Positions 21,688 to 34,507 of a DNA stretch of 64,000 nucleotides are shown one piece after another (position 1 is the stretch's first letter; each line of letters begins with the position of its first letter). Source of the stretch: Candidatus Roseilinea mizusawaensis. GTDB lineage: Bacteria; Chloroflexota; Anaerolineae; J036; Brachytrichaceae. The stretch is taken from the NCBI GenBank assembly GCA_016841965.1, contig JAEANN010000016.1, positions 39,305 to 103,304 on the forward strand, read 5' to 3'. The position numbers and the translations under genes were made by a program. A model generated the notes under the pieces. It ran no database searches and was not told the origin of the DNA. It was given only the letters and a program-made list of their open reading frames with translations.

Positions 21688-22695
21688 ATGTCTATTCAGC
21701 TTGATTCTCACACTGGGGTTGCCGGCGCTGTGCATGCGCAGGCCGAACGCGATACACAGGATGCGCTGTCGCTTGAAGTGACGTTGTGCGGGGTGCGCTT
21801 TCGCAATCCGATCGTGCTGGCATCGGGCATTCTCGGTCTCAGCGAGGAGATTTTCGCGCGGCTGGCCCGTTCGGGCATCGGCGGCATCACGACCAAATCG
21901 TGCAGCTTGCAGCCGCGCGTGGGCTGGCACAACCCCACCATCGTGAGCTGGGGGCATGGCCTGATCAACGCGGTTGGCCTCAGCAATCCCGGCGTAGAAG
22001 TGATGGTCGAGGAGATTCGCGCTGCCAGGCGTCATCTGCAACCGTTGGGCGTGCCGATCATCGCCAGCATCTTTGCCACCACCATCTACGATTTCGGCAC
22101 ATTGGCGCGCTATGTTAGCGAAGCCGAGCCGGACCTGATCGAAGTCAACATCTCGTGCCCAAATCTCGATGCGCAGCACGAAGAGATGTTTTCATCGAAT
22201 GCCTATGTCTCCGGCCAGGTGACGCGCGCGGTGAAGCGCAACGCGCGCTGCCCGGTGGTGGTCAAGCTGTCGCCGAATGTGGATAACATCGTGACCATTG
22301 CGCGTGAGGTTGCCAACAACGGCGCGGATGCTATCTGCGCGATCAACTCGCTGGGGCCGGGCATGGTGCTGGATATTGAGTCGGCGAAACCGGTGCTGGC
22401 GAATCGCACCGGCGGCGTAAGCGGGCCGGCCATTCGCCCCATCGCAGTGCGCTGCGTGTACGACATTTGCCGGGCCTTGCGCGGCATGGGCGTGCAGGTG
22501 ATCGGCACCGGCGGGGTGACCGACGCGCGCGATGCCATCGAGATGATCCTGGCCGGGGCCACCTGTGTTGGCGTGGGCAGCGCCGTGCACGCGCGCGGGC
22601 TGGGCGTGTTTGCCGAGATGACAGCCGGCATTGCAGACTATATGCGCCGGCACGGCTATCGCAGCCTCGATGAATTCCGGGGCCGGGCATTGTAG
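21688..22695 (+). CDS. pyrD: Dihydroorotate dehydrogenase, class 1 (catalytic Cys)
   Basis: GGITTKS, NISCPN and GTGGV motifs. No pyrK-like partner is adjacent. Confidence 0.88.
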   Translation: MSIQLDSHTGVAGAVHAQAERDTQDALSLEVTLCGVRFRNPIVLASGILGLSEEIFARLARSGIGGITTKSCSLQPRVGWHNPTIVSWGHGLINAVGLSNPGVEVMVEEIRAARRHLQPLGVPIIASIFATTIYDFGTLARYVSEAEPDLIEVNISCPNLDAQHEEMFSSNAYVSGQVTRAVKRNARCPVVVKLSPNVDNIVTIAREVANNGADAICAINSLGPGMVLDIESAKPVLANRTGGVSGPAIRPIAVRCVYDICRALRGMGVQVIGTGGVTDARDAIEMILAGATCVGVGSAVHARGLGVFAEMTAGIADYMRRHGYRSLDEFRGRAL

Positions 22696-22916
22696 AAATG
22701 CCGCCTGCCTCTGTGTGCTTCCTGCTTCCTGCTATCTCCAGGCGAATGGGGTGCCTCTGACCTCGTGTTGCGTAAATCTGCTCTTTTTCAAAGCGCTTAG
22801 TCATTGAATTGTGATCGCGAGTTGTTGTTGAATGAGCAGGACGGAATTAACACCTTGATCTACTTTCCTGAACCGCAATGTCGATGCACTGTCTCACGTA
22901 CGCCCAGGAGGATGTT

Positions 22917-25900
22917 ATGAAGCGGCAATCTGTACAACAATATGTGGGTCGACTGGGGCTGGCTCTGCTGTTGGCCGTAACCCTCTTGGCCCACCGCGCT
23001 GATCTGTCGCTGGCGAGGCCCCGCGCTCAACAGCCGGCAGCAGATGCGCTGCCCCCCGGCGCTCAAGAGACGCTGGCGCACTCTTCGACTGGGCCTGAGA
23101 GGAATGACGCGACGCCGCAGGCGATGTTCCCAATGCCGTCAACAGCGCCGGCCCAACCACGCGCGATCCAGTTGCGCGCGCGCACGTTCACGCCGGCCCC
23201 GCTGCAACCGGCTGACCGCCCGGCTCTGCGGCGTCTGGCCCGGCCTGGCGCGGAGCGAGTCCATGTGTTGCTTCAGCTCGACTACATTCCGCGCGAAGCT
23301 GCCAAAGCCGAGCTGGCCGGGCGCGGCATTCGCCTGCTGGCCTATGTGCCCGACTATGCCTGGATTGCGTCGGTGCCGGGCACGCAGCCCGAAGTAGCGT
23401 TGGACGCCCCCGGCCTGCTGTGGATGGGCGAACTGATGGTGGATGACAAGCTGGCCCCGCCTATTCGCGCCGGCGAGTGGGCCGCGTATAACCTGGCCCC
23501 CGATAGCATGGCGGCGGTGTATGTGGTGATGCACGCCGATGAGTCGCTGGAAACCGGCCGCGCGCTGGTGGCCTCATTGGGCGGCAAGGTAGTCAATGAA
23601 GTCATCGGCATTCGCACGCTGGTGGTGGAGATGCCGGCTGCTCAGATCCGCGCCCTGGCTGCCCACGACGCTGTGCAGTGGATCGAGCCGGCCGAGCCAC
23701 CACTTGGGGAAGCGAATGACGACATACGCGCCCGCATCGCCGTCAGCGAGGTTCAGGCTGCGCCCTACAACTTGAACGGTACAAACGTGGACATTTTGAT
23801 CTACGACGGCGGCGTGGTGACCCACACGCCATCGACCCATGCCGATTTCACGGGCCGCTTGACGATTGGCGCCGGCGAGACCAGCGGCGTGAGTGATCAC
23901 GCCACACACGTGGCCGGCACCGCCGCCGGCAGCGGCGCACTCAGCGCCGGCGCGGGTGGGGCGCCGCTTGAATGGCGCGGCATGGCGCCCTCGGCCCGCA
24001 TCATTTCGTATGCCTATAACCCCAACGGCACAGGAATGCTTTTCTACAATGACCCCGGCGATATCGAGAACAACTGGGCGGCCGCGCAGAACTCCTATGG
24101 CGCAGATATTGGCTCGGCCAGCTTGAGCAGCAACATTTACGCCAATTACCCGCTCAGTTGCACGCTGATGGGCAACTATGGCGTGTCATCGGCGTTGCTC
24201 GATCAGATCATTCGCGGTGGCAACAGTGTGGTGGGCATCGGCGATAAGTACATTGCCACCTGGGCTGCCGGCAATGAACGCGGCAGCCCAACTTCCTGCG
24301 GAACCTATGGCACCACCTCGCCGCCCTCGGCTGCTAAGAATCCCATTCATGTCGGCGCTTCGGACAAAAGTGATGCCATGAGCACATTCAGCTCGTGGGG
24401 GCCAACCGACGATGGCCGCGTCAAGCCAACCCTCGTGGCGACCGGCGTCGGCATTCGCTCGACGATCCCGAATCGCTACACCAACAACATCACTCGCGAT
24501 TGCGATGGCTCTGGCGACGATTACTGCTACCCCTATGACACCATGTCGGGCACGTCAATGGCGACGCCGGCGGTGGCCGGCAGCATTGCTCTGATGTTGC
24601 AGCACTATCGCGCCGCGTATGGAGTGGGCGGCAACTTCTGGCCGTCTACTGCGAAAGCAATTCTCATTCACACCGCCACCGATCGCGGCAACCTGGGGCC
24701 GGATTATCAGTGGGGCTATGGGCTGGTGAATATTCGCCGGGCGGTCGATCTGATCACTGCACGCGGGTTTTATCAGCGCAGCTTGAGTCAGGGCGACATC
24801 GACTATTACATTTTTGCTGTGCCCACCGGCACACTCACCGCAACCGTGACGATTGCCTGGGATGACATCGAAGCCACGTTCAATGCCACCCCGACGTTGA
24901 TCAACAACCTTGATCTGGAACTGGTGTCGCCGAGCGGCGTGATCACGCGGCCTTGGGTGCTCAACCCGTTGAACCCGTCTGCTCCGGCCACGCGCGGCGT
25001 AGACAACCGCAACAACCAGGAGCAGGTGCAGGTGTTCAATCCAGAGCCGGGTACGTGGATTGCGCGCGTGCGCGGCACGACGGTGCCGCTGGGTGCGCAG
25101 GACTATTCGCTGGCCTGCGATGGTTGCCGCCTGTTGGATGTCGGCGTCTGTCAAAGCACTGCGGTTGGCGGGTTGCCGCCGTTTGGGTCGCTTGCGACGC
25201 AGGCCTTTGCTCCGGCGGGGGCAACGTTTGCTCCATCTGTTGAAGCTGTTGAAGCTGTTGAAGATGGCGCTGCAGTCGTTGGCCAGATGTGGACGGATGA
25301 CGCCGGCCCAGAGTTGCTGACAGTCGGCGAGCAGTGGCAGCGCAGCTTGGAAATCAAGCCTGCGCCGGACACACAGGCCGAGCGTGCGCAGCAGGACGCG
25401 CTGAGTCAGGCGCTGCGCGCTTTTGAGCAAGCGCGTGAAGCCGGCCCGCACGCGTTGATTGCATTTGCCCAAACCGCCTCGCCTGACGTGCAGGCCATGA
25501 TTGCAGGAGAAGTGGAACTGACCCGCGCCCGCTTGACCGGCGCAGCGCTGGAAACGTCGGCCATGACGCCGGCCGGCGCGCAGCAGGTCAACCGTGTGGG
25601 TGTGAACGGCCCTTGCGCGTATCCCACGATTCAAGATGCGATCAATGCCGCGCCGAATGGCGCGACTGTGCGCGTGCCCGGCCAGTTCTTTGCCGAGAAT
25701 CTGGTCATCAGCGGCGGCAAAGTGATCACCATCGAAGGGGGGTACGATGCGGCCTGCGCCGCGCTGCTGCCCGCAGCGCGGGCGCGCGTGGATGCTGTCA
25801 ACGCGGCCAGCACGGTGGATGTGTACGGCCTTGGCACACGGGTTGTGCTGCGCAATCTGGTGATCGGGTGGGGAACTGGTTTCGGGGCTGGCGTCGATGT

Positions 25901-28505
25901 GTACTCCAACGGGCAGGCCACGCTGGACAATGTGCGTGTCGTCAATAACAACGGCTCTTCTGGCGGCGGCGTGTTTGTCAGCAGCTCGGCGGTCGTCACG
26001 CTGACCAACGGTACGCAAATTGAACGCAACACCGCCGGCGGTAATGGCGGCGGGGCGACTGTGTATGGCGTGCTGCGCGGCTATGCCACCACCACCGATC
26101 TGACCACCAACTGCGCTGCCGGTGATGGCGGCAATGCCTTTGTCTCTGGCGGCACGCTCTTTTTTGACAACGCCGACAACTACGTCGGCCTGGCGGCCGG
26201 CGCGGCCGGCCGTGGTGGCGGCATCTATGCGACTGACGCGGTGATCACGCTCACCAATTCCTCTTTTCTGGGCGAGACTGGCCCGTGCTGCAACCGCGCT
26301 GTGGATGGCGCCGGCCTGTTTGCCAGCAACAGCGCCATCTGGTTGCTGGGGAACGCAACAACGGTGCTGGCGAATCGCGCGACCGGCAATGGCGGCGGCA
26401 TCTATCTGACCAACGGCAGCCGGCTGGTTGCAACCGGCGCATCTGTGGGGTACGCAGCGCTTCCGAGTGCGGGCAACTGGTCTAGTGGCGATGGCGGCGG
26501 GATGTATGTCATCAGCAGCACTGTCAGCGGCACACTGAGAATCTATAACAATCGGGCGACCTCTGGGGGTGGCATCTATGCGAACAATGCCGTGATTGGG
26601 CTTGCCAACACCGAGGTGGGCGGCGCCGGCGACAACCAGCCCAATCAGGCGGGCTTTAATGGGGCCGGCCTATACTTGTCCGGCCTGACTACCGCCACAT
26701 TGGACAGCTCGCTGATTAGCAGCAACACGCTGACCAACACCTTGACCGGATACGGCGGCGGCATCTACTTGCGCAGCAGTGTGTTGACGATGACAAACAG
26801 CCGCATCGAGCGCCATGTGGCGCCTTCTGCTTCGGATGGGCGCGGGGCAGGGCTGTATGTGTTTGATGCGCAGGTCACCCTGAGTAACACGCTGGTGCAG
26901 AGCAACACCGCCGGCGCAGTGGGCGGCGGGGCGCGCCTGTGGGGGCAAAGCCGGCTCGATATCTTGGGCGGATCGGCTTTCCTGAACAATCGCGCGTTGA
27001 ACGCCGAAGGGGGCGGGATTGCCGCCAGCGGCGTGACCACCATCACTGTGTCGAACGCGGCCTTGCGCAACAACACTGCCAGCACCTCTGGCGGGGCAAT
27101 CAGTATTTCCAATGGCCGACTGAGCGCGAGTGGCGAATGGGACATTCGATTCAATCAGGCCGGCCAGAACGGCGGCGCTGTGTATGCCGAGCCATCGGCC
27201 CAACTGCATTTCGACGCGAGCGGCCCCGGAGACAGTTATCTGGCGGTCAATAGCGCTGCCAACGACGGCGGCGCCCTCTATACCAGTGGTTTCAAGACGG
27301 TGCAGTTGTATGCGACCCACGGCGCGTCGCTTAACTTGAACACCAATCTGGCGGCCCGCAACGGCGGCGCGCTGTATGGCGACGGTGGAACATTCTTCGA
27401 TGTGTATGGCCGGCTACAAGCTTCGTCGAATCAAGCCGGCGGCAACGGGGGATTCGCCTACTTGCAGAATGGCGCGCGTATCTGGCTGGATGACTTTGTG
27501 AACGACCGACCGCAGATTGGGGTGAATCAGGCAGACAACGGCGGGGCGATCTATGCGCTGAATGGACAAGTGCAATGCGACGGCGCAGATTTTGGGGATG
27601 CGTCGTATGGCAACCGGGCCGTGTCGGGCAGCGGAGGCGCGCTGTATGTCAGCGCCACGCTGGTGCTGGCCGATAACTGTGTCTTTCGCAACAACTGGGC
27701 CGAAGCCGGCGATGGCGGGGCCATTGCTGCGTATGCCGGCTCGACGGTGACGCTGGACACGGATTACGCCGTGGTGTTGCTGGCGCAGGCAGTCTCGGCG
27801 CGCGACGAGACGCTGGCAGCCGGCCAAGCCCAGGCCGGGCCGGCCGTCTCCCTGGCCCCGCAAGCCACTGGCTGTAATCCGTTGGCAGGGCCTTGCGCCG
27901 CGTTGTATGCCAATCGGGCCATCAGCAGCACCGGCGCTAACGGCAACGGCGGGGCTATTTACGTGGATGACAGTGTGCTGACCGCTCACAATCAACTTTT
28001 GCGACTCAATCAAGCAGCGCGGGGCGGCGCAATCTATCAGCAAGGCGGCGCAGCGCGAAGCTGGCTGAGCAATACGCTGGTCTATAGCAACACCAGCCTG
28101 CTCGCGTTTGGTGCGGGGATTCGCAATGCCGGCGGCGCGATGACGTTGACGCATGTGACGGCGGCCCACAATGTGGGTGGAGCAGGGTATTCGCCGGGCA
28201 GCGCCCAAAGCTACGTCTACAACACGATTATCTGGGGCAACACCTTTCCTGCCTCAGGCGCGTTGACTCAGGCGGTGTGTAACATTGACCAGGGGGGCGT
28301 AGCAGGGTCGAGCGTTAATCCGTTGTTTGTGTCGCCGGGGAGTGGAGAGAATTATCGGCTGCGCGCCGGCTCGCCGGCGCGAGACGCTTGCGCCGTGCGG
28401 CTGGCGCGAGACATCGACAACTGGCCCCGCCCGATCGGCCCGCAGGCCGATATGGGCGTGTACGAGATGCCGAGATGGGTGTTTGCGCCGATTGTGTTGC
28501 GCTGA
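22917..28505 (+). CDS. Giant secreted protein: subtilisin-like S8 peptidase (with pro-domains and a P/PPC-like domain) fused to a >1000-aa parallel beta-helix / Pmp-like repeat region
   Basis: AGGAGG RBS and signal-like N-terminus. Catalytic triad D (VDILIYDGG), H (HATHVAGTAAG), S (SGTSMATPAVAG). IAWDD...NNLDLELVSPSG. Dozens of repeats with an N.A..GGG(I/A)Y core. C-terminal ...NPLFVSPGSGENYRLRAGSPARDA...DMGVYE. Confidence 0.85.
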   Translation: MKRQSVQQYVGRLGLALLLAVTLLAHRADLSLARPRAQQPAADALPPGAQETLAHSSTGPERNDATPQAMFPMPSTAPAQPRAIQLRARTFTPAPLQPADRPALRRLARPGAERVHVLLQLDYIPREAAKAELAGRGIRLLAYVPDYAWIASVPGTQPEVALDAPGLLWMGELMVDDKLAPPIRAGEWAAYNLAPDSMAAVYVVMHADESLETGRALVASLGGKVVNEVIGIRTLVVEMPAAQIRALAAHDAVQWIEPAEPPLGEANDDIRARIAVSEVQAAPYNLNGTNVDILIYDGGVVTHTPSTHADFTGRLTIGAGETSGVSDHATHVAGTAAGSGALSAGAGGAPLEWRGMAPSARIISYAYNPNGTGMLFYNDPGDIENNWAAAQNSYGADIGSASLSSNIYANYPLSCTLMGNYGVSSALLDQIIRGGNSVVGIGDKYIATWAAGNERGSPTSCGTYGTTSPPSAAKNPIHVGASDKSDAMSTFSSWGPTDDGRVKPTLVATGVGIRSTIPNRYTNNITRDCDGSGDDYCYPYDTMSGTSMATPAVAGSIALMLQHYRAAYGVGGNFWPSTAKAILIHTATDRGNLGPDYQWGYGLVNIRRAVDLITARGFYQRSLSQGDIDYYIFAVPTGTLTATVTIAWDDIEATFNATPTLINNLDLELVSPSGVITRPWVLNPLNPSAPATRGVDNRNNQEQVQVFNPEPGTWIARVRGTTVPLGAQDYSLACDGCRLLDVGVCQSTAVGGLPPFGSLATQAFAPAGATFAPSVEAVEAVEDGAAVVGQMWTDDAGPELLTVGEQWQRSLEIKPAPDTQAERAQQDALSQALRAFEQAREAGPHALIAFAQTASPDVQAMIAGEVELTRARLTGAALETSAMTPAGAQQVNRVGVNGPCAYPTIQDAINAAPNGATVRVPGQFFAENLVISGGKVITIEGGYDAACAALLPAARARVDAVNAASTVDVYGLGTRVVLRNLVIGWGTGFGAGVDVYSNGQATLDNVRVVNNNGSSGGGVFVSSSAVVTLTNGTQIERNTAGGNGGGATVYGVLRGYATTTDLTTNCAAGDGGNAFVSGGTLFFDNADNYVGLAAGAAGRGGGIYATDAVITLTNSSFLGETGPCCNRAVDGAGLFASNSAIWLLGNATTVLANRATGNGGGIYLTNGSRLVATGASVGYAALPSAGNWSSGDGGGMYVISSTVSGTLRIYNNRATSGGGIYANNAVIGLANTEVGGAGDNQPNQAGFNGAGLYLSGLTTATLDSSLISSNTLTNTLTGYGGGIYLRSSVLTMTNSRIERHVAPSASDGRGAGLYVFDAQVTLSNTLVQSNTAGAVGGGARLWGQSRLDILGGSAFLNNRALNAEGGGIAASGVTTITVSNAALRNNTASTSGGAISISNGRLSASGEWDIRFNQAGQNGGAVYAEPSAQLHFDASGPGDSYLAVNSAANDGGALYTSGFKTVQLYATHGASLNLNTNLAARNGGALYGDGGTFFDVYGRLQASSNQAGGNGGFAYLQNGARIWLDDFVNDRPQIGVNQADNGGAIYALNGQVQCDGADFGDASYGNRAVSGSGGALYVSATLVLADNCVFRNNWAEAGDGGAIAAYAGSTVTLDTDYAVVLLAQAVSARDETLAAGQAQAGPAVSLAPQATGCNPLAGPCAALYANRAISSTGANGNGGAIYVDDSVLTAHNQLLRLNQAARGGAIYQQGGAARSWLSNTLVYSNTSLLAFGAGIRNAGGAMTLTHVTAAHNVGGAGYSPGSAQSYVYNTIIWGNTFPASGALTQAVCNIDQGGVAGSSVNPLFVSPGSGENYRLRAGSPARDACAVRLARDIDNWPRPIGPQADMGVYEMPRWVFAPIVLR

Positions 28506-28558: not shown

Positions 28559-28586
28559 TTGTGCGTTGCCGGCTTTGCACTATAAT
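28559..28586 (+). promoter_or_regulatory. Sigma70-like promoter TTGTGC-N16-TATAAT; the -10 box ends 7 nt before ATG 28594
   Basis: -35 at 28559-28564 and -10 at 28581-28586. Same -10/N7/ATG geometry as uvrB, pyrF and sseA. Confidence 0.55.
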
Positions 28587-28593
28587 GCGCGCC

Positions 28594-28677
28594 ATGATTG
28601 CGGCAGTTGCACTTCGCTCGCGTCGTTCGCGCCGGCTGGACAGTGTGTCCGGTCAGGGCGCGTCTCCGCGTGCGTGA
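28594..28677 (+). CDS. Candidate 27-codon leader peptide MIAAVALRSRRSRRLDSVSGQGASPRA (5 Arg in 7 consecutive codons)
   Basis: ATG 28594. Arg codons CGC, CGT, CGT, CGC, CGG lie at 28615-28635. Stop TGA at 28675-77. A terminator follows. Confidence 0.4.
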   Translation: MIAAVALRSRRSRRLDSVSGQGASPRA

Positions 28678-28708
28678 GCAACGCCCACGGCGTCGTTTGA
28701 ATCTGAAC

Positions 28709-28750
28709 CGCCCCCGACACACTGCGCGTGTTGGGGGCGATTTTTGTTGT
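28709..28750 (+). terminator. Intrinsic terminator in the argC 5' leader (attenuator terminator)
   Basis: 12-bp stem CGCCCCCGACAC / GTGTTGGGGGCG (one G-U pair), 7-nt loop, then ATTTTTGTTGT. Ends 68 nt before the argC ATG. Confidence 0.7.
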
Positions 28751-28817
28751 CGATGTCGCATTGCGAATTGCTGCATGTCACAGACAACCCCACAAGGTAA
28801 CCAGACGGAAACACAAG

Positions 28818-29864
28818 ATGATTAAGATCGGAATCTACGGAGCGACTGGATATACCGGCGTCGAACTGGCGCGTATCCTCAGCCGGCACTCCAAGGCGAC
28901 GATCGGTTTTGCCGCGTCCGAGACCTACGCCGGCCAGCGTTTGTCCGACGCCCTGCCGTGCCCGTTCGACATCCCATTAGTGAAAACCGAAGACGCCCCG
29001 CTCGCCGATGTGGATGTGGTCTTCTCCTGTTTGCCACACGGTCCTTCGGCTGAACTGTGCCATCACGCCCTGACGCTCGGCAAGCGGGTGATCGACCTGT
29101 CGGCAGACTTCCGCCTGCGCGACCCCGCGGCCTATGCGCGCGCCTATCAGCATGCGCATCCACATCCCGATCTGCTGGCCCAGGCCGTGTATGGCTTGCC
29201 AGAGGTCTACCGCGCACTCATTCCCGATGCTGATCTGATTGCAAATCCCGGCTGTTACCCCACCAGCGTCATTCTGGGCGCGCTGCCGGTGCTGGAACTG
29301 GGTGCGCTAGAGGGGAATCTGATCATCGCCGACAGCAAATCGGGCGTCAGCGGCGCCGGGCGCAAGCCAACCCTGACCACGCACTTTGTTGAGGTCAATG
29401 AGAGCCTGGCCCCGTATAACATCGGCCGCGTACATCGCCATGTGCCAGAAATGGAGCAGGAGTTGAACGCACTGGTCAGGAATCAGCCGCCGGCTATGAG
29501 CGGTCAGATCGCGGTGTTGTTCACGCCGCATTTGCTGCCCATCTCGCGCGGCATGTTAAGCGCGCTCTACCTGCGCCTGACGCCCGAAGGCGCGCAGGCC
29601 GACTGGCACGCCATTTACACGCGCCGGTTTGATGGCGAGCCGTTTGTGCGGGTGTTGCCCAAAGGGCAAATTGCCACGATCGCGCACGCCAATCACACCA
29701 ACTATGCGGTCCTCTCGGTCGGGCCGGTGGTGGGCATCGAGCAGGGCAGCCCCACGCTGTTGGTAGTGTCGTGCATCGATAATTTGCTGAAAGGCGCGTC
29801 GGGCCAGGCGGTTCAGAATATGAATCTGATGTTTGGGTTCGACGAACGCGAAGGGTTGCTGTAA
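28818..29864 (+). CDS. argC: N-acetyl-gamma-glutamyl-phosphate reductase
   Basis: IGIYGATGYTG NAD(P) loop and catalytic Cys in NPGCYPTS. Start trimmed to MIKIGIYG (ATG 28818). Confidence 0.92.
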   Translation: MIKIGIYGATGYTGVELARILSRHSKATIGFAASETYAGQRLSDALPCPFDIPLVKTEDAPLADVDVVFSCLPHGPSAELCHHALTLGKRVIDLSADFRLRDPAAYARAYQHAHPHPDLLAQAVYGLPEVYRALIPDADLIANPGCYPTSVILGALPVLELGALEGNLIIADSKSGVSGAGRKPTLTTHFVEVNESLAPYNIGRVHRHVPEMEQELNALVRNQPPAMSGQIAVLFTPHLLPISRGMLSALYLRLTPEGAQADWHAIYTRRFDGEPFVRVLPKGQIATIAHANHTNYAVLSVGPVVGIEQGSPTLLVVSCIDNLLKGASGQAVQNMNLMFGFDEREGLL

Positions 29865-29920: not shown

Positions 29921-31180
29921 TTGAAGACGATGCAGAGCTTGAGCATCATGCCGGCAGAGTCGGCGGCGCAGGTGATGGAAGCGCGTGGGCTGTTTGTAGA
30001 GTATGCGCAGTCGCTGGGCTTCAGCCTGTGTTTTCAGGGTTTCGATGAGGAGCTGGCCGGCCTGCCCGGCAAGTATGCCGCGCCGAAAGGCCGGCTGTTG
30101 CTCGCGCGCGTGGAGGGGCAACTGGCCGGCTGTGTGGCGCTGCAACCGATCGACTCGCGGGCCTGCGAAATGAAACGGCTCTACGTGCGGCCCGAATACC
30201 GAGGCCGGGGCATCGGGCGCGCGCTGGCGCAGGCGATTGTCGAGGCCGGCCGTCAGATCGGCTATCGCACTATGCAACTCGACACGCTGACATCTATGCC
30301 GGAGGCGATGGCGCTGTATCGCTCGATGGGCTTTGTGGAGCGCGCGCCCTATCGCTTCAATCCTCTCGCAGGCGCGGTGTACATGGCGTTGCCGCTGGCG
30401 CAAGTCGAGGTGTACAAGGTCAGTGGCAGCGAGCTGGACGACCCGGCCTTCAGCCGGCGTTTTGCCGGTTGCATTGCCGGGGCGGCGCGGGCCGGCGTGA
30501 AACCAATTGTCGTGCATGGCGGAGGCAAAGAATTGACAGCCCTGCTCGGCGCGCTGCAAATCGAGTCGCGCTTTGTGAATGGCCTGCGCGTGACCGACGC
30601 CAGAGCGCGCGATGCGGCGCTCATGGTGCTGGCCGGCCTGGCCAACAAGCGGCTGGTTGCTGCATTGCTGGCCGAAGGCGTGGATGCTATCGGTGTGTGC
30701 GGCGTCGATCGTGGGCTGGTGCGTGTGTGTGCGCTCGACCCCGAATTGCAATATGTGGGCAAGCCCACCGCCGTGCGCGCCGAGGCGTTGGACGAGTGGT
30801 TGTGTCAGAAAATTGTGCCGGTCATCGCCCCCATGTCGTTGGGCGACGATGGCGAGATTTACAATGTCAACGCCGACCACGTAGCGGCGGTTGTCGCTTC
30901 GGCCATCGAGGCCGACCGGCTGACGTTTGTGACAAATGTGCCGGCGGTGCTCGATGCCAACAAACTGCCGATTGCCAATCTTTCTGCAGAGCAGGCCGGG
31001 GCGTTGATCGAAGCCGGCGTCATCTCCGGCGGGATGATTCCAAAAGTGCGCTCGGCCCTAGAAACGCTGGGCAATGGCGTCGGCCGGGTGCGCATCACCG
31101 ATCTGGATGGCATTGTCACCGGGGCCGGCACGACGTTTAACCTACACCCTGAACGCGCACTATCCGGCGCTCAGAACTGA
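29921..31180 (+). CDS. argB: Fusion protein: N-terminal GNAT acetyltransferase (~155 aa) plus C-terminal acetylglutamate kinase (amino acid kinase fold)
   Basis: GNAT core: RLYVRPEYRGRGIGRALAQAIVEAGR. Kinase part: VYKVSGSEL..PIVVHGGGKELT..FVNGLRVTD..YNVNADHVAA..GGMIPKV. One uninterrupted frame. Start is TTG 29921 or ATG 29930. Confidence 0.8.
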   Translation: MKTMQSLSIMPAESAAQVMEARGLFVEYAQSLGFSLCFQGFDEELAGLPGKYAAPKGRLLLARVEGQLAGCVALQPIDSRACEMKRLYVRPEYRGRGIGRALAQAIVEAGRQIGYRTMQLDTLTSMPEAMALYRSMGFVERAPYRFNPLAGAVYMALPLAQVEVYKVSGSELDDPAFSRRFAGCIAGAARAGVKPIVVHGGGKELTALLGALQIESRFVNGLRVTDARARDAALMVLAGLANKRLVAALLAEGVDAIGVCGVDRGLVRVCALDPELQYVGKPTAVRAEALDEWLCQKIVPVIAPMSLGDDGEIYNVNADHVAAVVASAIEADRLTFVTNVPAVLDANKLPIANLSAEQAGALIEAGVISGGMIPKVRSALETLGNGVGRVRITDLDGIVTGAGTTFNLHPERALSGAQN

Positions 31181-31188
31181 ACTGTTAA

Positions 31189-32628
<1,440 letters not shown>

Positions 32629-32632
32629 CGCA

Positions 32633-34507
32633 TTGGACATCGACGTTCGACCCGCCGGCCCAGATGATGTGTCGTCTATTGTGTTGCTGGTGGCTGCCAA
32701 TGCCCGCAAGGGTGGCCTGTTGCCGCGCAGCGAGACCAACATTCGCGCCACGCTCAAAAACTTTGTGGTCGCCGTGGCCTCTGGTGAGGGGCCGCTGGCA
32801 AATGACGATGGCAAGCCGGTTGTTGTTGGTTGCGGTTCGCTGGCGCCGATGAACTCCACACTGGTCGAGTTGCGTTCGCTGGCAGTAGATGAACGCGTGC
32901 GCGGGGCCGGCGTGGGCCAGCGTATCGTTTCTTCTCTGATCGACCTGGCGCGCCAGCGCAAGTTTGGCACTTTATTTGCGCTGACGCGCGCCACGCGCTT
33001 TTTCGAGAAATGCGGGTTTACTCTGGCGCCAAAGGAGTTTTTTCCAGAGAAGGTCTGGCGCGATTGTGTGGCTTGTCCCATGCTGTCCAACTGCGATGAA
33101 GTGGCGATGGTGTTGCCGCTGTCGTCGGAAGACACCGTGGCGCATCAAGGTCTGGCCGGCGCGCGCGCGCCAGACCCGGCCCGCGAGAAGACAATCCCCT
33201 TGCAGGTCGTCAGCAAGATGCGCACGGCGCAGGAGAGCGTTGCAATCAACACACACGAACTGGTCAATCGAGTTGTGCTGGCTTACAGCGGCGGCCTCGA
33301 CACAGCTTGTGCTGTGCCCTGGCTGCGCGAGACCTACGGCTGTGAAGTGATCTGCTTTGTGGCCGATGTGGGGCAGGGCGGCGATTTCGAGGCCATCAAG
33401 CAGCGCGCGATTGCATCCGGCGCAGCCGACTGCATCGTCGAAGACCTGCGCGAAGAGTTCGCCAATGAATACCTGTTTCCGCTCATTCAAAGCGGCGCAA
33501 TCTACGAAGGCAAGTATCTGCTGGGTGCAAGCATTGTGCGCCCGCTCATTGCCAAGCACCAGGTCGATTGGGCGGCCCGGCTTGGCGCCGATGCAGTCGC
33601 GCACGCAGCCACCGGCAAAGGCAACGATCAGGTGCGCTTTGAGCTAAGTTACATGGCGCTTAATCCTCGCCTGAAGGTGATTGCGCCCTGGCGTGAATGG
33701 CACATACGCGGGCGCGAAGATGCGATTGCCTATGCGCGCGCACACAATGTCCCTATTAGCCAGTCTTTAGAACGCATTTATTCCGGTGACCACAGCCTGT
33801 GGCACAAGAGCGCCGAAGGTGGCAGCCTCGAAGACCCTTGGCGTGAGCCGGATCCCGGACTGTACGGCATGACCGTCGCCCCTGAACAAGCGCCCGACGA
33901 GCCGGAATACGTGGAAATTGAGTTTGTATGCGGCTTGCCCAAGAAAGTGAACGGCAAGAGTATGGGCGGCGCCGAGCTGATCGAGACGTTAAATCAGATC
34001 GGCGCGCGGCATGGAGTAGGTCGGGTGGACTTGGTGGAGAACCGGTTGATCGGCATTAAATCCCGCGGAGTGTATGAGACGCCGGGCGGCACGATCCTGC
34101 GCGCGGCGCATCAAGGACTGGAAGAATTGACGCTCGATCGTGAGACGTTGCACTTCAAACAGATGGTCGCCCTGCGGTACGCTGAACTGATCTACAACGG
34201 CCAGTGGTTCACACCCTTGCGCGATGCGATTCAGGCATTTGTAATGGTCACACAGCGCGATGTGACCGGCACAGCCCGCGTGAAGCTATTTAAGGGCAAC
34301 GCAGTGCTGGTGGGAAGAAAGGCAGCTTACTCGCTCTATCGGGAAGATCTGGCAACTTTCCTGCGCGATGACGTGTATAACCACCATGATGCGGAGGGAT
34401 TTATTCGGCTGTACGGTTTGCCGTTGCGGGTCAAAGCGCAGGTTGATCTCAATCGCGCCGCGCGTGTGGCGCCGCTGGATATGCCGGCCGGAGAAGGGCG
34501 AGATTGA
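32633..34507 (+). CDS. argG: Fusion protein: N-terminal short NAGS-like GNAT domain (~165 aa) plus linker plus canonical (type 1) argininosuccinate synthase
   Basis: GNAT part: ELRSLAVDERVRGAGVGQRIV...FFEKCGF...PEKVWRDCVACPMLSNCDEVAM. ArgG part: [52 protein letters not shown] start 8 nt after a GGAGGG RBS. Confidence 0.85.
   Translation: MDIDVRPAGPDDVSSIVLLVAANARKGGLLPRSETNIRATLKNFVVAVASGEGPLANDDGKPVVVGCGSLAPMNSTLVELRSLAVDERVRGAGVGQRIVSSLIDLARQRKFGTLFALTRATRFFEKCGFTLAPKEFFPEKVWRDCVACPMLSNCDEVAMVLPLSSEDTVAHQGLAGARAPDPAREKTIPLQVVSKMRTAQESVAINTHELVNRVVLAYSGGLDTACAVPWLRETYGCEVICFVADVGQGGDFEAIKQRAIASGAADCIVEDLREEFANEYLFPLIQSGAIYEGKYLLGASIVRPLIAKHQVDWAARLGADAVAHAATGKGNDQVRFELSYMALNPRLKVIAPWREWHIRGREDAIAYARAHNVPISQSLERIYSGDHSLWHKSAEGGSLEDPWREPDPGLYGMTVAPEQAPDEPEYVEIEFVCGLPKKVNGKSMGGAELIETLNQIGARHGVGRVDLVENRLIGIKSRGVYETPGGTILRAAHQGLEELTLDRETLHFKQMVALRYAELIYNGQWFTPLRDAIQAFVMVTQRDVTGTARVKLFKGNAVLVGRKAAYSLYREDLATFLRDDVYNHHDAEGFIRLYGLPLRVKAQVDLNRAARVAPLDMPAGEGRD

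Follow-up and report, generated by a model that had tools for sequence, protein, structure and literature searches.

A candidate arginine-codon leader-peptide attenuator upstream of argC in Candidatus Roseilinea and other Chloroflexota

Is arginine biosynthesis in some bacteria controlled by translation of a leader peptide? The question is raised by the region preceding argC in a 64,000-nt stretch of Candidatus Roseilinea mizusawaensis DNA (contig JAEANN010000016.1, positions 39,305 to 103,304; the whole stretch is hereafter called the window), for which a first-pass annotation made from the sequence had proposed an arginine attenuator. Leader-peptide attenuators of class I are established for the trp, his, phe, leu, thr and ilv operons, with trpL, hisL, pheL, leuL, thrL and ilvL/ivbL of E. 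coli and Salmonella as the examples, and the amino acids accepted as attenuated are Trp, His, Phe, Leu, Thr and Ile/Val, with Cys in mycobacteria. Textbooks present arginine biosynthesis as the prime example of control by a repressor, ArgR, and to our knowledge arginine is not among the established cases of leader-peptide attenuation. The first-pass annotation regarded an arginine-sensing attenuator as unusual, and indeed none for arginine biosynthesis was found in a full-text literature search that covered subscription journals thinly, an earlier computational prediction being possible. On the evidence presented below, the argC leader is probably a transcription attenuator of the ribosome-mediated kind (class I, trpL-type), which would sense the supply of arginyl-tRNA and control an argC-argB-argG-argG operon.

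The stop codon of the upstream gene (28505) and the ATG of argC (28818) are separated by 312 nt, and all the elements that had been described in this gap, on the forward (+) strand, are present at the positions given for them. A perfect -10 hexamer, TATAAT (28581–28586), which is invariant in the ten closest leaders (10/10), is preceded at a spacing of 16 nt by the candidate -35 hexamer TTGTGC (28559–28564) and followed after 7 nt by an ATG at 28594. The promoter-like character of this sequence is borne out for the -10 box but less so for the -35 element, which matches TTGACA at only three of six positions; because of this weak match, a promoter consensus scan of the leader made no call at TTGTGC/TATAAT. 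More distant relatives carry a perfect TTGACA at the same spacing in their leaders. The ATG opens a leader-peptide open reading frame (ORF) of 27 codons followed by UGA (28594–28677), encoding MIAAVALRSRRSRRLDSVSGQGASPRA, in which five of seven consecutive codons specify arginine: codons 8, 10, 11, 13 and 14, that is CGC, CGU, CGU, CGC and CGG (28615–28635), constitute the proposed sensing site. Further downstream lies a predicted intrinsic terminator, in which a 12-bp stem containing nine GC pairs (28709–28720/28728–28739; -23.7 kcal/mol) precedes ATTTTTGTTGT; from the end of the stem to the argC ATG there are 78 nt. The complete element is compact, about 160 nt. As the ATG lies only 7 nt past the -10 box, the spacing implies a leaderless mRNA, the transcription start of which would be A28594.

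The arms of this leader can be arranged in alternative helices. In the minimum free energy (MFE) fold of the ribosome-free transcript, region 1 (28628–28642), which overlaps Arg codons 13–14 and forms the 5' arm of an anti-antiterminator hairpin, pairs with nucleotides 28646–28662 of region 2 (28643–28662). This predicted hairpin 1:2 has 15 base pairs, interrupted by a bulge of 2 nt (-23.7 kcal/mol), and is slightly larger than the pairing of about 14 bp that had been drawn by hand. In the same fold the 5' arm of the terminator is mostly unpaired, and the 12-bp terminator forms in the full transcript. Region 2, which holds the invariant GUGUGUCCGG, can instead pair with region 3 (28702–28724), composed of the terminator 5' arm (28709–28720), the 7 nt upstream of it and four loop bases, and holding the invariant GACACAC. 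Region 4 (28728–28750) consists of the terminator 3' arm (28728–28739) and the U-tract AUUUUUGUUGU (28740–28750). The constrained folds suggested in the first-pass annotation were obtained by masking the footprint of a ribosome stalled with codon 10, 11 or 13 in the A site, and this masking switches region 3 from free to paired: in the stalled-state MFE folds the main antiterminator helix joins 28641/28643–28649 (CAGUGUGUC) to 28716–28724 (GACACACUG), and further 2:3 helices (28650–28653/28707–28710 and 28654–28657/28702–28705) accompany it, the three together occupying the terminator arm. The alternative pairing that had been proposed is thus present, with a register more favourable than that of the hand pairing of 28645–28660 with 28709–28720.

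The predicted fold of the whole leader yielded a z-score of -3.08 relative to shuffled sequences, and the complementarity between regions 2 and 3, in the test with redefined zones described below, one of -1.9 for the window. The three mutually exclusive helices 1:2, 2:3 and 3:4 are of near-equal predicted stability (-23.7, -23.2 and -23.7 kcal/mol, respectively, the 2:3 value being that of the isolated duplex), and such a trio, as modelled here, is the requirement of a trp-type attenuator. The trpL-like layout that had been suggested is supported in the window, where the three helices would compete, but its details vary among lineages, as described below.

From these elements we infer how transcription start, ORF translation, folding kinetics and the response to arginine would be connected. 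Transcription would begin at A28594 of the start codon or immediately beside it, yielding a leaderless mRNA, and a 70S ribosome would translate the 27-codon leader as RNA polymerase moves ahead. When charged tRNA-Arg is plentiful, the ribosome would pass the five Arg codons and reach the stop codon, regions 1 and 2 would re-pair behind it, region 3 would remain free, and the 3:4 terminator with its U-tract would end transcription 70–80 nt before argC. When charged tRNA-Arg is scarce, the ribosome would stall with an Arg codon (10–14) in the A site and cover or melt region 1; region 2 (GUGUGUCCGG...) would pair with the emerging region 3 (...GACACAC) at about -23 kcal/mol, the terminator could not form and the operon would be transcribed.

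Could the arrangement be fortuitous, an Arg-rich frame of GC-rich DNA that happens to lie before the ordinary terminator of the upstream gene? The first-pass annotation had cautioned that Arg-rich frames easily arise by chance in GC-rich DNA, and this caution was warranted: a count over the six frames of the 64-kb window gave 107 separate stop-free clusters in which five or more of seven codons specify Arg, about one per 600 bp, and the poor -35 element is likewise what a chance origin would allow. The Arg run of the leader is stronger than in 99.3% of dinucleotide shuffles (P = 0.007 for the ORF-embedded run). The case against chance from this single locus is thus moderate and, with 107 comparable clusters in the window, significance comes from conservation and not from this locus alone.

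The best matches of the window argC are found in Chloroflexota, near Thermoflexales and Candidatus Roseilinea. Loci containing argC (denoted by L numbers) were taken from species-representative genomes, from metagenomes and from contigs encoding close homologues, and the set used here comprises 29 non-redundant leaders of Chloroflexota other than Dehalococcoidia, which fall into 20 lineage groups and precede argC genes 46–93% identical to that of the window. A common plan is found in 29/29. A sigma-70-type promoter precedes a short ORF of 13–35 codons in which Arg codons are clustered; then come a hairpin and, beginning 20–66 nt past the ORF stop, an intrinsic terminator, the 5' arm of which is complementary to the segment that a ribosome stalled on the Arg codons would expose. 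The start codon, the in-frame stop-free ORF and the Arg cluster are kept in every leader, as expected if orthologous leaders conserve the element, but the position of the stop codon with respect to the hairpins is not conserved outside the closest group. The element is absent from the two Dehalococcoidia loci (L042 and L070). Leader peptides from the set include MFAAVAPRSRRSRRLDRVSGQGASPRA (L161), MQMVAFELRSRRQRSLDSVSGLGATLHG (L001), MSAVSEIRFRRPRAKDRVSGARTRAR (L164), MQRPVRDRRRRAPACVPGAIEPTRAKVA (L171), MFHFLLSLRRRRRRITEQSARLVGVGSQ (L008, which contains RRRRRR), MIIQPTPRLRRRPWTIGLVLEVV (L084) and MNPSNSGKIQSRRRREQ (L009). The Arg cluster persists in leaders with a GC content of just 43–50%, where base composition cannot account for it.

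When one value per lineage group was combined over 19 groups, the enrichment of the Arg run relative to dinucleotide shuffles reached a Fisher combined p of 2e-12. Arginine is the commonest residue of the leader peptides (20% versus 7.4% in the genes of the window). An automated criterion, namely at least three Arg in five codons followed by a terminator 25–150 nt downstream, upstream of argC, picked out 16 of 19 Chloroflexota loci and 8 of the 132 loci that belong to other phyla (Fisher 4e-13), and five of these eight matches correspond to the Arg-rich C-terminus of rpsI (ribosomal protein S9) with its own terminator. Arg-rich short ORFs before argC in beta- and alphaproteobacteria (for example 'ARPVRFAMASPVR' and '...ARRRKQFSKR') were rejected as candidates on the same grounds, being the rpsI coding region, in or out of frame, with the rpsI terminator. 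The gene upstream of the Chloroflexota leader varies by lineage (pyrD, an ABC permease gene, selA, a divergent Mrr-like gene or, in the window, an S8 peptidase gene) and is thus sometimes divergent; the terminator is therefore part of the arg leader rather than that of a preceding gene. With the arrangement kept in 20 lineage groups, low-GC leaders included, with differing upstream genes and with strong combined statistics, a chance origin is effectively refuted by the comparative data, and we assign it a negligible probability.

A leaderless start appears to be usual but not universal among these leaders. In 16 of them the start codon is located 7–11 nt past the -10 hexamer, without a Shine-Dalgarno sequence, a spacing that implies mRNAs that are leaderless or almost so; it amounts to 7 nt in the window and in L161, L162, L163, L001, L170 and L004. 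The remaining leaders have 5' untranslated regions of 18–37 nt.

The ten closest leaders were aligned (alignment A2). Invariant columns comprise TATAAT, the Arg codons CGC..CGUCGU, GUGUG.C.GG, GCCCC.GACACAC and UGU..GGGG, while N-terminal codons, loops and spacers vary; judged from the aligned sequences, this pattern is the signature of a leader peptide selected for its codons and not for its protein product. Compensatory base changes, which the first-pass annotation had named as a check, were found in both hairpin 1:2 and the terminator. In the 1:2 + 3:4 consensus, 92% of the cells are paired, compared with 34–50% when the 3' partner is slid by 1–3 columns; 10 of 32 consensus pairs show a compensatory change, compared with at most 3 in the slid controls, and the observed covariation score was reached by none of 500 column shuffles. 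Five of the compensatory pairs lie in consensus helix 2, within hairpin 1:2, and three in the terminator, in which 96% of cells are paired. The 7-bp antiterminator core GUGUGUC/GACACAC is identical in nine of the A2 sequences and one base off in the tenth; it is conserved, yet without a covariation signal within A2.

Two observations concern codon choice. The tandem CGU-CGU (window 28621–28626; A2 columns 31–36) is invariant in 10/10 of the closest leaders, and CGU accounts for 35 of the 95 Arg codons in 19 representative leaders, versus 9% of the Arg codons in the window genes, where CGC accounts for 57%. The preference for CGU-CGU could reflect the decoding tRNA, decoding speed or a constraint of RNA structure, and the invariant pair might tune the sensor to one tRNA-Arg isoacceptor.

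Does the antiterminator extend beyond the closest relatives? In most leaders the pairing probability of the terminator arm is higher in the stalled than in the free state, and in 15/19 groups the antiterminator of the stalled-state MFE fold takes up 60% or more of the terminator arm. The duplex was also compared with shuffles in uniformly defined zones, one being the 45 nt exposed upstream of a ribosome that has stalled on the middle Arg codon, the other the terminator arm together with its loop and the 5 nt preceding it; z was below 0 in 20/20 groups (mean -2.0; 13 below -1.64) and the combined p was 1e-11. In each lineage the predicted 2:3 energy is similar to that of the terminator. The complementary segments themselves differ by lineage (GUGUGUC/GACACAC, GGUCUGGUG/CGCCAGACC, GGGUCCGG/CCGGACUC, GAAGUUCGG/CCGGACUUC and GGGGUUCGAG/CCCGAGCCCC), which, as read from these sequences, amounts to co-variation of the whole architecture.

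Several results weigh against the attenuator reading or against a uniform version of it. In the window the -35 element is weak, and some members of the set (L002, L004, L006 and L174) have only two or three Arg codons. A first, narrower test of the 2:3 duplex against shuffles, in which the strict terminator 5' arm was set against the first 35 nt beyond the final Arg codon, gave a weak result (mean z = -0.73); these zones truncated GUGUGUC in the group of the window and omitted loop and flank bases used by other lineages. The combined p of 1e-11 given above carries some forking-path risk, its zones having been redefined once, after this first result. Disruption of 1:2 by the stalled ribosome was seen by both MFE-fold criteria in only 5/19 groups, and the MFE folds of several lineages do not clearly show region 2 tied up by a region 1 that the ribosome would cover. 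The ORF stop has no fixed place with respect to the hairpins, and in Caldilineaceae (L007, L009 and L010) the ORF ends just before the hairpin, so that no single geometry fits all leaders. In the window and its close relatives the anti-antiterminator is clear, with its 15-bp hairpin over Arg codons 13–14 and its covariation; what exactly regions 1 and 2 do is likely to vary by lineage. Finally, in the full-length stalled fold the terminator is still thermodynamically favoured, and the switch must therefore be kinetic, as in trp.

We then considered whether the conserved leader might be an RNA recognised by a protein or a small molecule (a riboswitch, or a TRAP- or PyrR-like target), with the short ORF incidental or an aid to folding. 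Such recognition would account for the conservation of the CYRGAC-loop-GUCYGG hairpin and of a UUUGC motif even past the end of the ORF in L007, L009 and L010, and for hairpin stems that are fixed while their loops vary. However, the leaders contain no complex conserved aptamer, only short complementary segments whose sequence differs by lineage, and a search of the window leader against Rfam 15 (E <= 10) gave no relevant match, the T-box and the Trp, His, Leu, Thr and Phe leader families being included; 15 related loci likewise had no match at gathering score to the T-box, to known leader families or to known riboswitches. A ligand-only RNA element needs no ORF, and therefore the start codon, Arg cluster and stop-free frame kept in 29/29 leaders, with the ORF beginning where a leaderless start is expected, count against this explanation, which we regard as quite improbable.

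The same searches dispose of the known leader classes. A T-box riboswitch was ruled out, no Rfam match being found in the window leader or the 15 related loci, and the amino-acid leader families of Rfam (Trp, His, Leu, Thr and Phe) were ruled out as their covariance models gave no hits. An ArgR/AhrC operator at the promoter was also discarded: the ARG box TNTGAATWWWWATTCANW has no match within three mismatches across the whole 64-kb window, a result to be read with the reservation that divergent Chloroflexota ArgR operators could differ. Neither argR nor further arg genes were found among the 36 of about 47 window genes annotated with Pfam, a 64-kb sample that cannot speak for the genome, and a scan of the other intergenic regions of the window for leader-peptide-type attenuators found none that was convincing.

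The UUUGC(G/A) motif lies a few bases after the CYRGAC-loop-GUCYGG hairpin in the otherwise dissimilar leaders L004–L007, L009, L010, L014, L002, L174 and L175. In Caldilineaceae a possible pairing partner is GCAAAG, which abuts the terminator stem on its 5' side. The motif may contribute to the antiterminator or serve as a pause site or some other signal.

A further explanation accepts a real attenuator but assigns it another signal, either general translation-transcription coupling or ribosome availability, or arrest of the Arg-rich nascent peptide by free arginine or another ligand, for which the fungal arginine attenuator peptide and TnaC provide examples of ligand-responsive arrest. Runs of basic residues can themselves slow ribosomes, and the invariant CGU-CGU, built from a codon that supplies only 9% of the Arg codons of the window genes, hints at something beyond arginine content. 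The Arg codons are nevertheless the sole feature common to all lineages, and they are mixed (CGU, CGC, CGG, AGG, AGA and CGA) and set among unconserved flanking residues, unlike what is expected of a specific arrest peptide. The element is, moreover, tied specifically to arg genes. Because stalling favours the antiterminator in the folds, stalling caused by excess arginine would switch the operon on, the wrong sign for feedback. We consider a different signal improbable, and retain arginyl-tRNA supply as the likely one.

The mechanism predicted for the argC leader is classical; the element is novel in the amino acid it would sense, in its phylum and in having a leaderless start as well. Like the class I leaders, the argC leader has a short ORF, clustered codons for the amino acid made by its own operon and an intrinsic terminator before the first gene, together with predicted mutually exclusive 1:2, 2:3 and 3:4 helices of similar stability between which a stalled ribosome would decide. 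It differs from them in the proposed sensing of arginine, in its Chloroflexota host, in being usually leaderless and devoid of a Shine-Dalgarno sequence, and in having no similarity to the leaders of Rfam. Its stop codon follows region 2, or precedes the hairpin in some relatives, whereas the geometry of trpL is fixed.

Leaderless leader peptides precede trp, ilvB and leuA in Corynebacterium. The mycobacterial Cys elements reportedly attenuate operon expression without the canonical terminator/antiterminator triad, whereas the argC leader, which also differs in amino acid and phylum, has a clear intrinsic terminator. These mycobacterial elements are leaderless polycysteine short ORFs (bioRxiv 10.1101/834739), and with such short ORFs of Actinobacteria the argC leader shares a regulatory ORF at the 5' end of the transcript and consecutive codons for one amino acid that control a biosynthetic operon. 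Codons for arginine act as sensors elsewhere: consecutive Arg codons in orf34 control speF in Salmonella (PMC6386406), and rbfL is an Arg-sensing translational upstream ORF in S. aureus (PMC13009471). Common to these two and to the argC leader, as predicted here, is that ribosome pausing at consecutive or rare Arg codons of a short upstream ORF reports arginine supply. However, orf34 and rbfL control polyamine synthesis and a biofilm regulator, respectively, rather than arginine biosynthesis, have no sequence similarity to the argC leader, and act via mRNA conformation with Rho or occlusion of the ribosome-binding site, whereas the argC leader would act via an intrinsic terminator and antiterminator. 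A Cys-codon upstream ORF motif has also been described upstream of cysS (PMC8632094). T-box elements with an Arg specifier and ArgR/AhrC share with the argC leader the feedback control of arginine biosynthesis, and the T-box likewise reads the charging of tRNA-Arg through a terminator and antiterminator, but the T-box binds the tRNA directly and ArgR is a DNA-binding repressor, while the argC leader would sense arginine by translation of Arg codons.

An unrelated but analogous compact leader precedes argC in a lineage of alphaproteobacterial metagenome-assembled genomes (L148, 2325–2437; L177, 1036–1147; L178, same element), the argC genes of which are 44% identical to that of the window, and those of L148 and L177/L178 87% identical to each other. 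The leader peptides, MNQIATSTRRERLILR and MNTISTSTRRRRLILR, are each followed by a terminator GCCGCGC..GCGCGGC-U8. The partner of region 2 is formed by the Arg codons themselves in the free folds and by the terminator arm in the stalled ones, and the constrained folds thus follow the same 1:2/2:3/3:4 logic; the element is absent from the Nitrobacteraceae relatives L179 and L180. This leader suggests convergent evolution and a wider, overlooked class. More broadly, leaders with Arg codons may be widespread and serve as the main or only transcriptional control of arginine biosynthesis in Anaerolineae, Caldilineae and Thermoflexales, replacing ArgR, with at least one independent origin in Alphaproteobacteria (L148 and L177); we put this extension forward tentatively, at somewhat less than even chances.

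If the attenuator is real, arginine would join the classical list of amino acids under leader-peptide attenuation, and its conservation would mean that arginine is sensed through translation too. It would be the first regulatory element of amino-acid metabolism in this large, mostly uncultured group of Chloroflexota and a further example, outside Actinobacteria, of regulatory ORFs on leaderless mRNAs; taken with the alphaproteobacterial case, it would show evolution arriving at one solution on more than one occasion. Inclusion of the family in libraries of the Rfam type could improve the annotation of metagenome-assembled genomes, and with a size of about 160 nt the element might be used as an arginine-responsive part.

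The operon downstream of the leader begins with argC (28818–29864, + strand; TIGR01850, E = 1e-105) and continues with a fusion of a GNAT domain (residues 52–138) to an acetylglutamate kinase (argB; residues 164–394), encoded at 29921–31180. A separate type-2 argG (31225–32628) lies between this fusion and a second one (32633–34507), in which a GNAT/short-NAGS-like domain (54–130) is N-terminal to a second argininosuccinate synthase (213–600). The operon of argC, GNAT-argB, argG and GNAT-argG thus runs to 34507, with uvrB convergent at its end. The domain order of GNAT-argB is opposite to that of classical ArgA, and both fusions are kept in relatives L161–L173. Directly upstream of the leader lies the gene of an S8 peptidase (subtilase) of 1875 amino acids (22878–28505), itself preceded by pyrD (21688–22695); pyrD directly adjoins the arg leader in L001, L162, L163 and L170, the subtilase gene intervening in the window. 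In L163, a Roseilinea contig, the 265 nt between terminator and argC (2240–2490) are filled by 7-nt units repeated in tandem, with about 10 copies of TGAAACG, about 11 of CGTCAAT and 4 of GTCCGTC, and a GACGGAC array lies upstream of the promoter (2013–2050). In L166 (4818–5379) and L167 (4827–5664), from Roseilinea and Brachytrichaceae genomes, a nucleotidyltransferase/HepT-like toxin-antitoxin pair is inserted in the arg operon between argB and argG.

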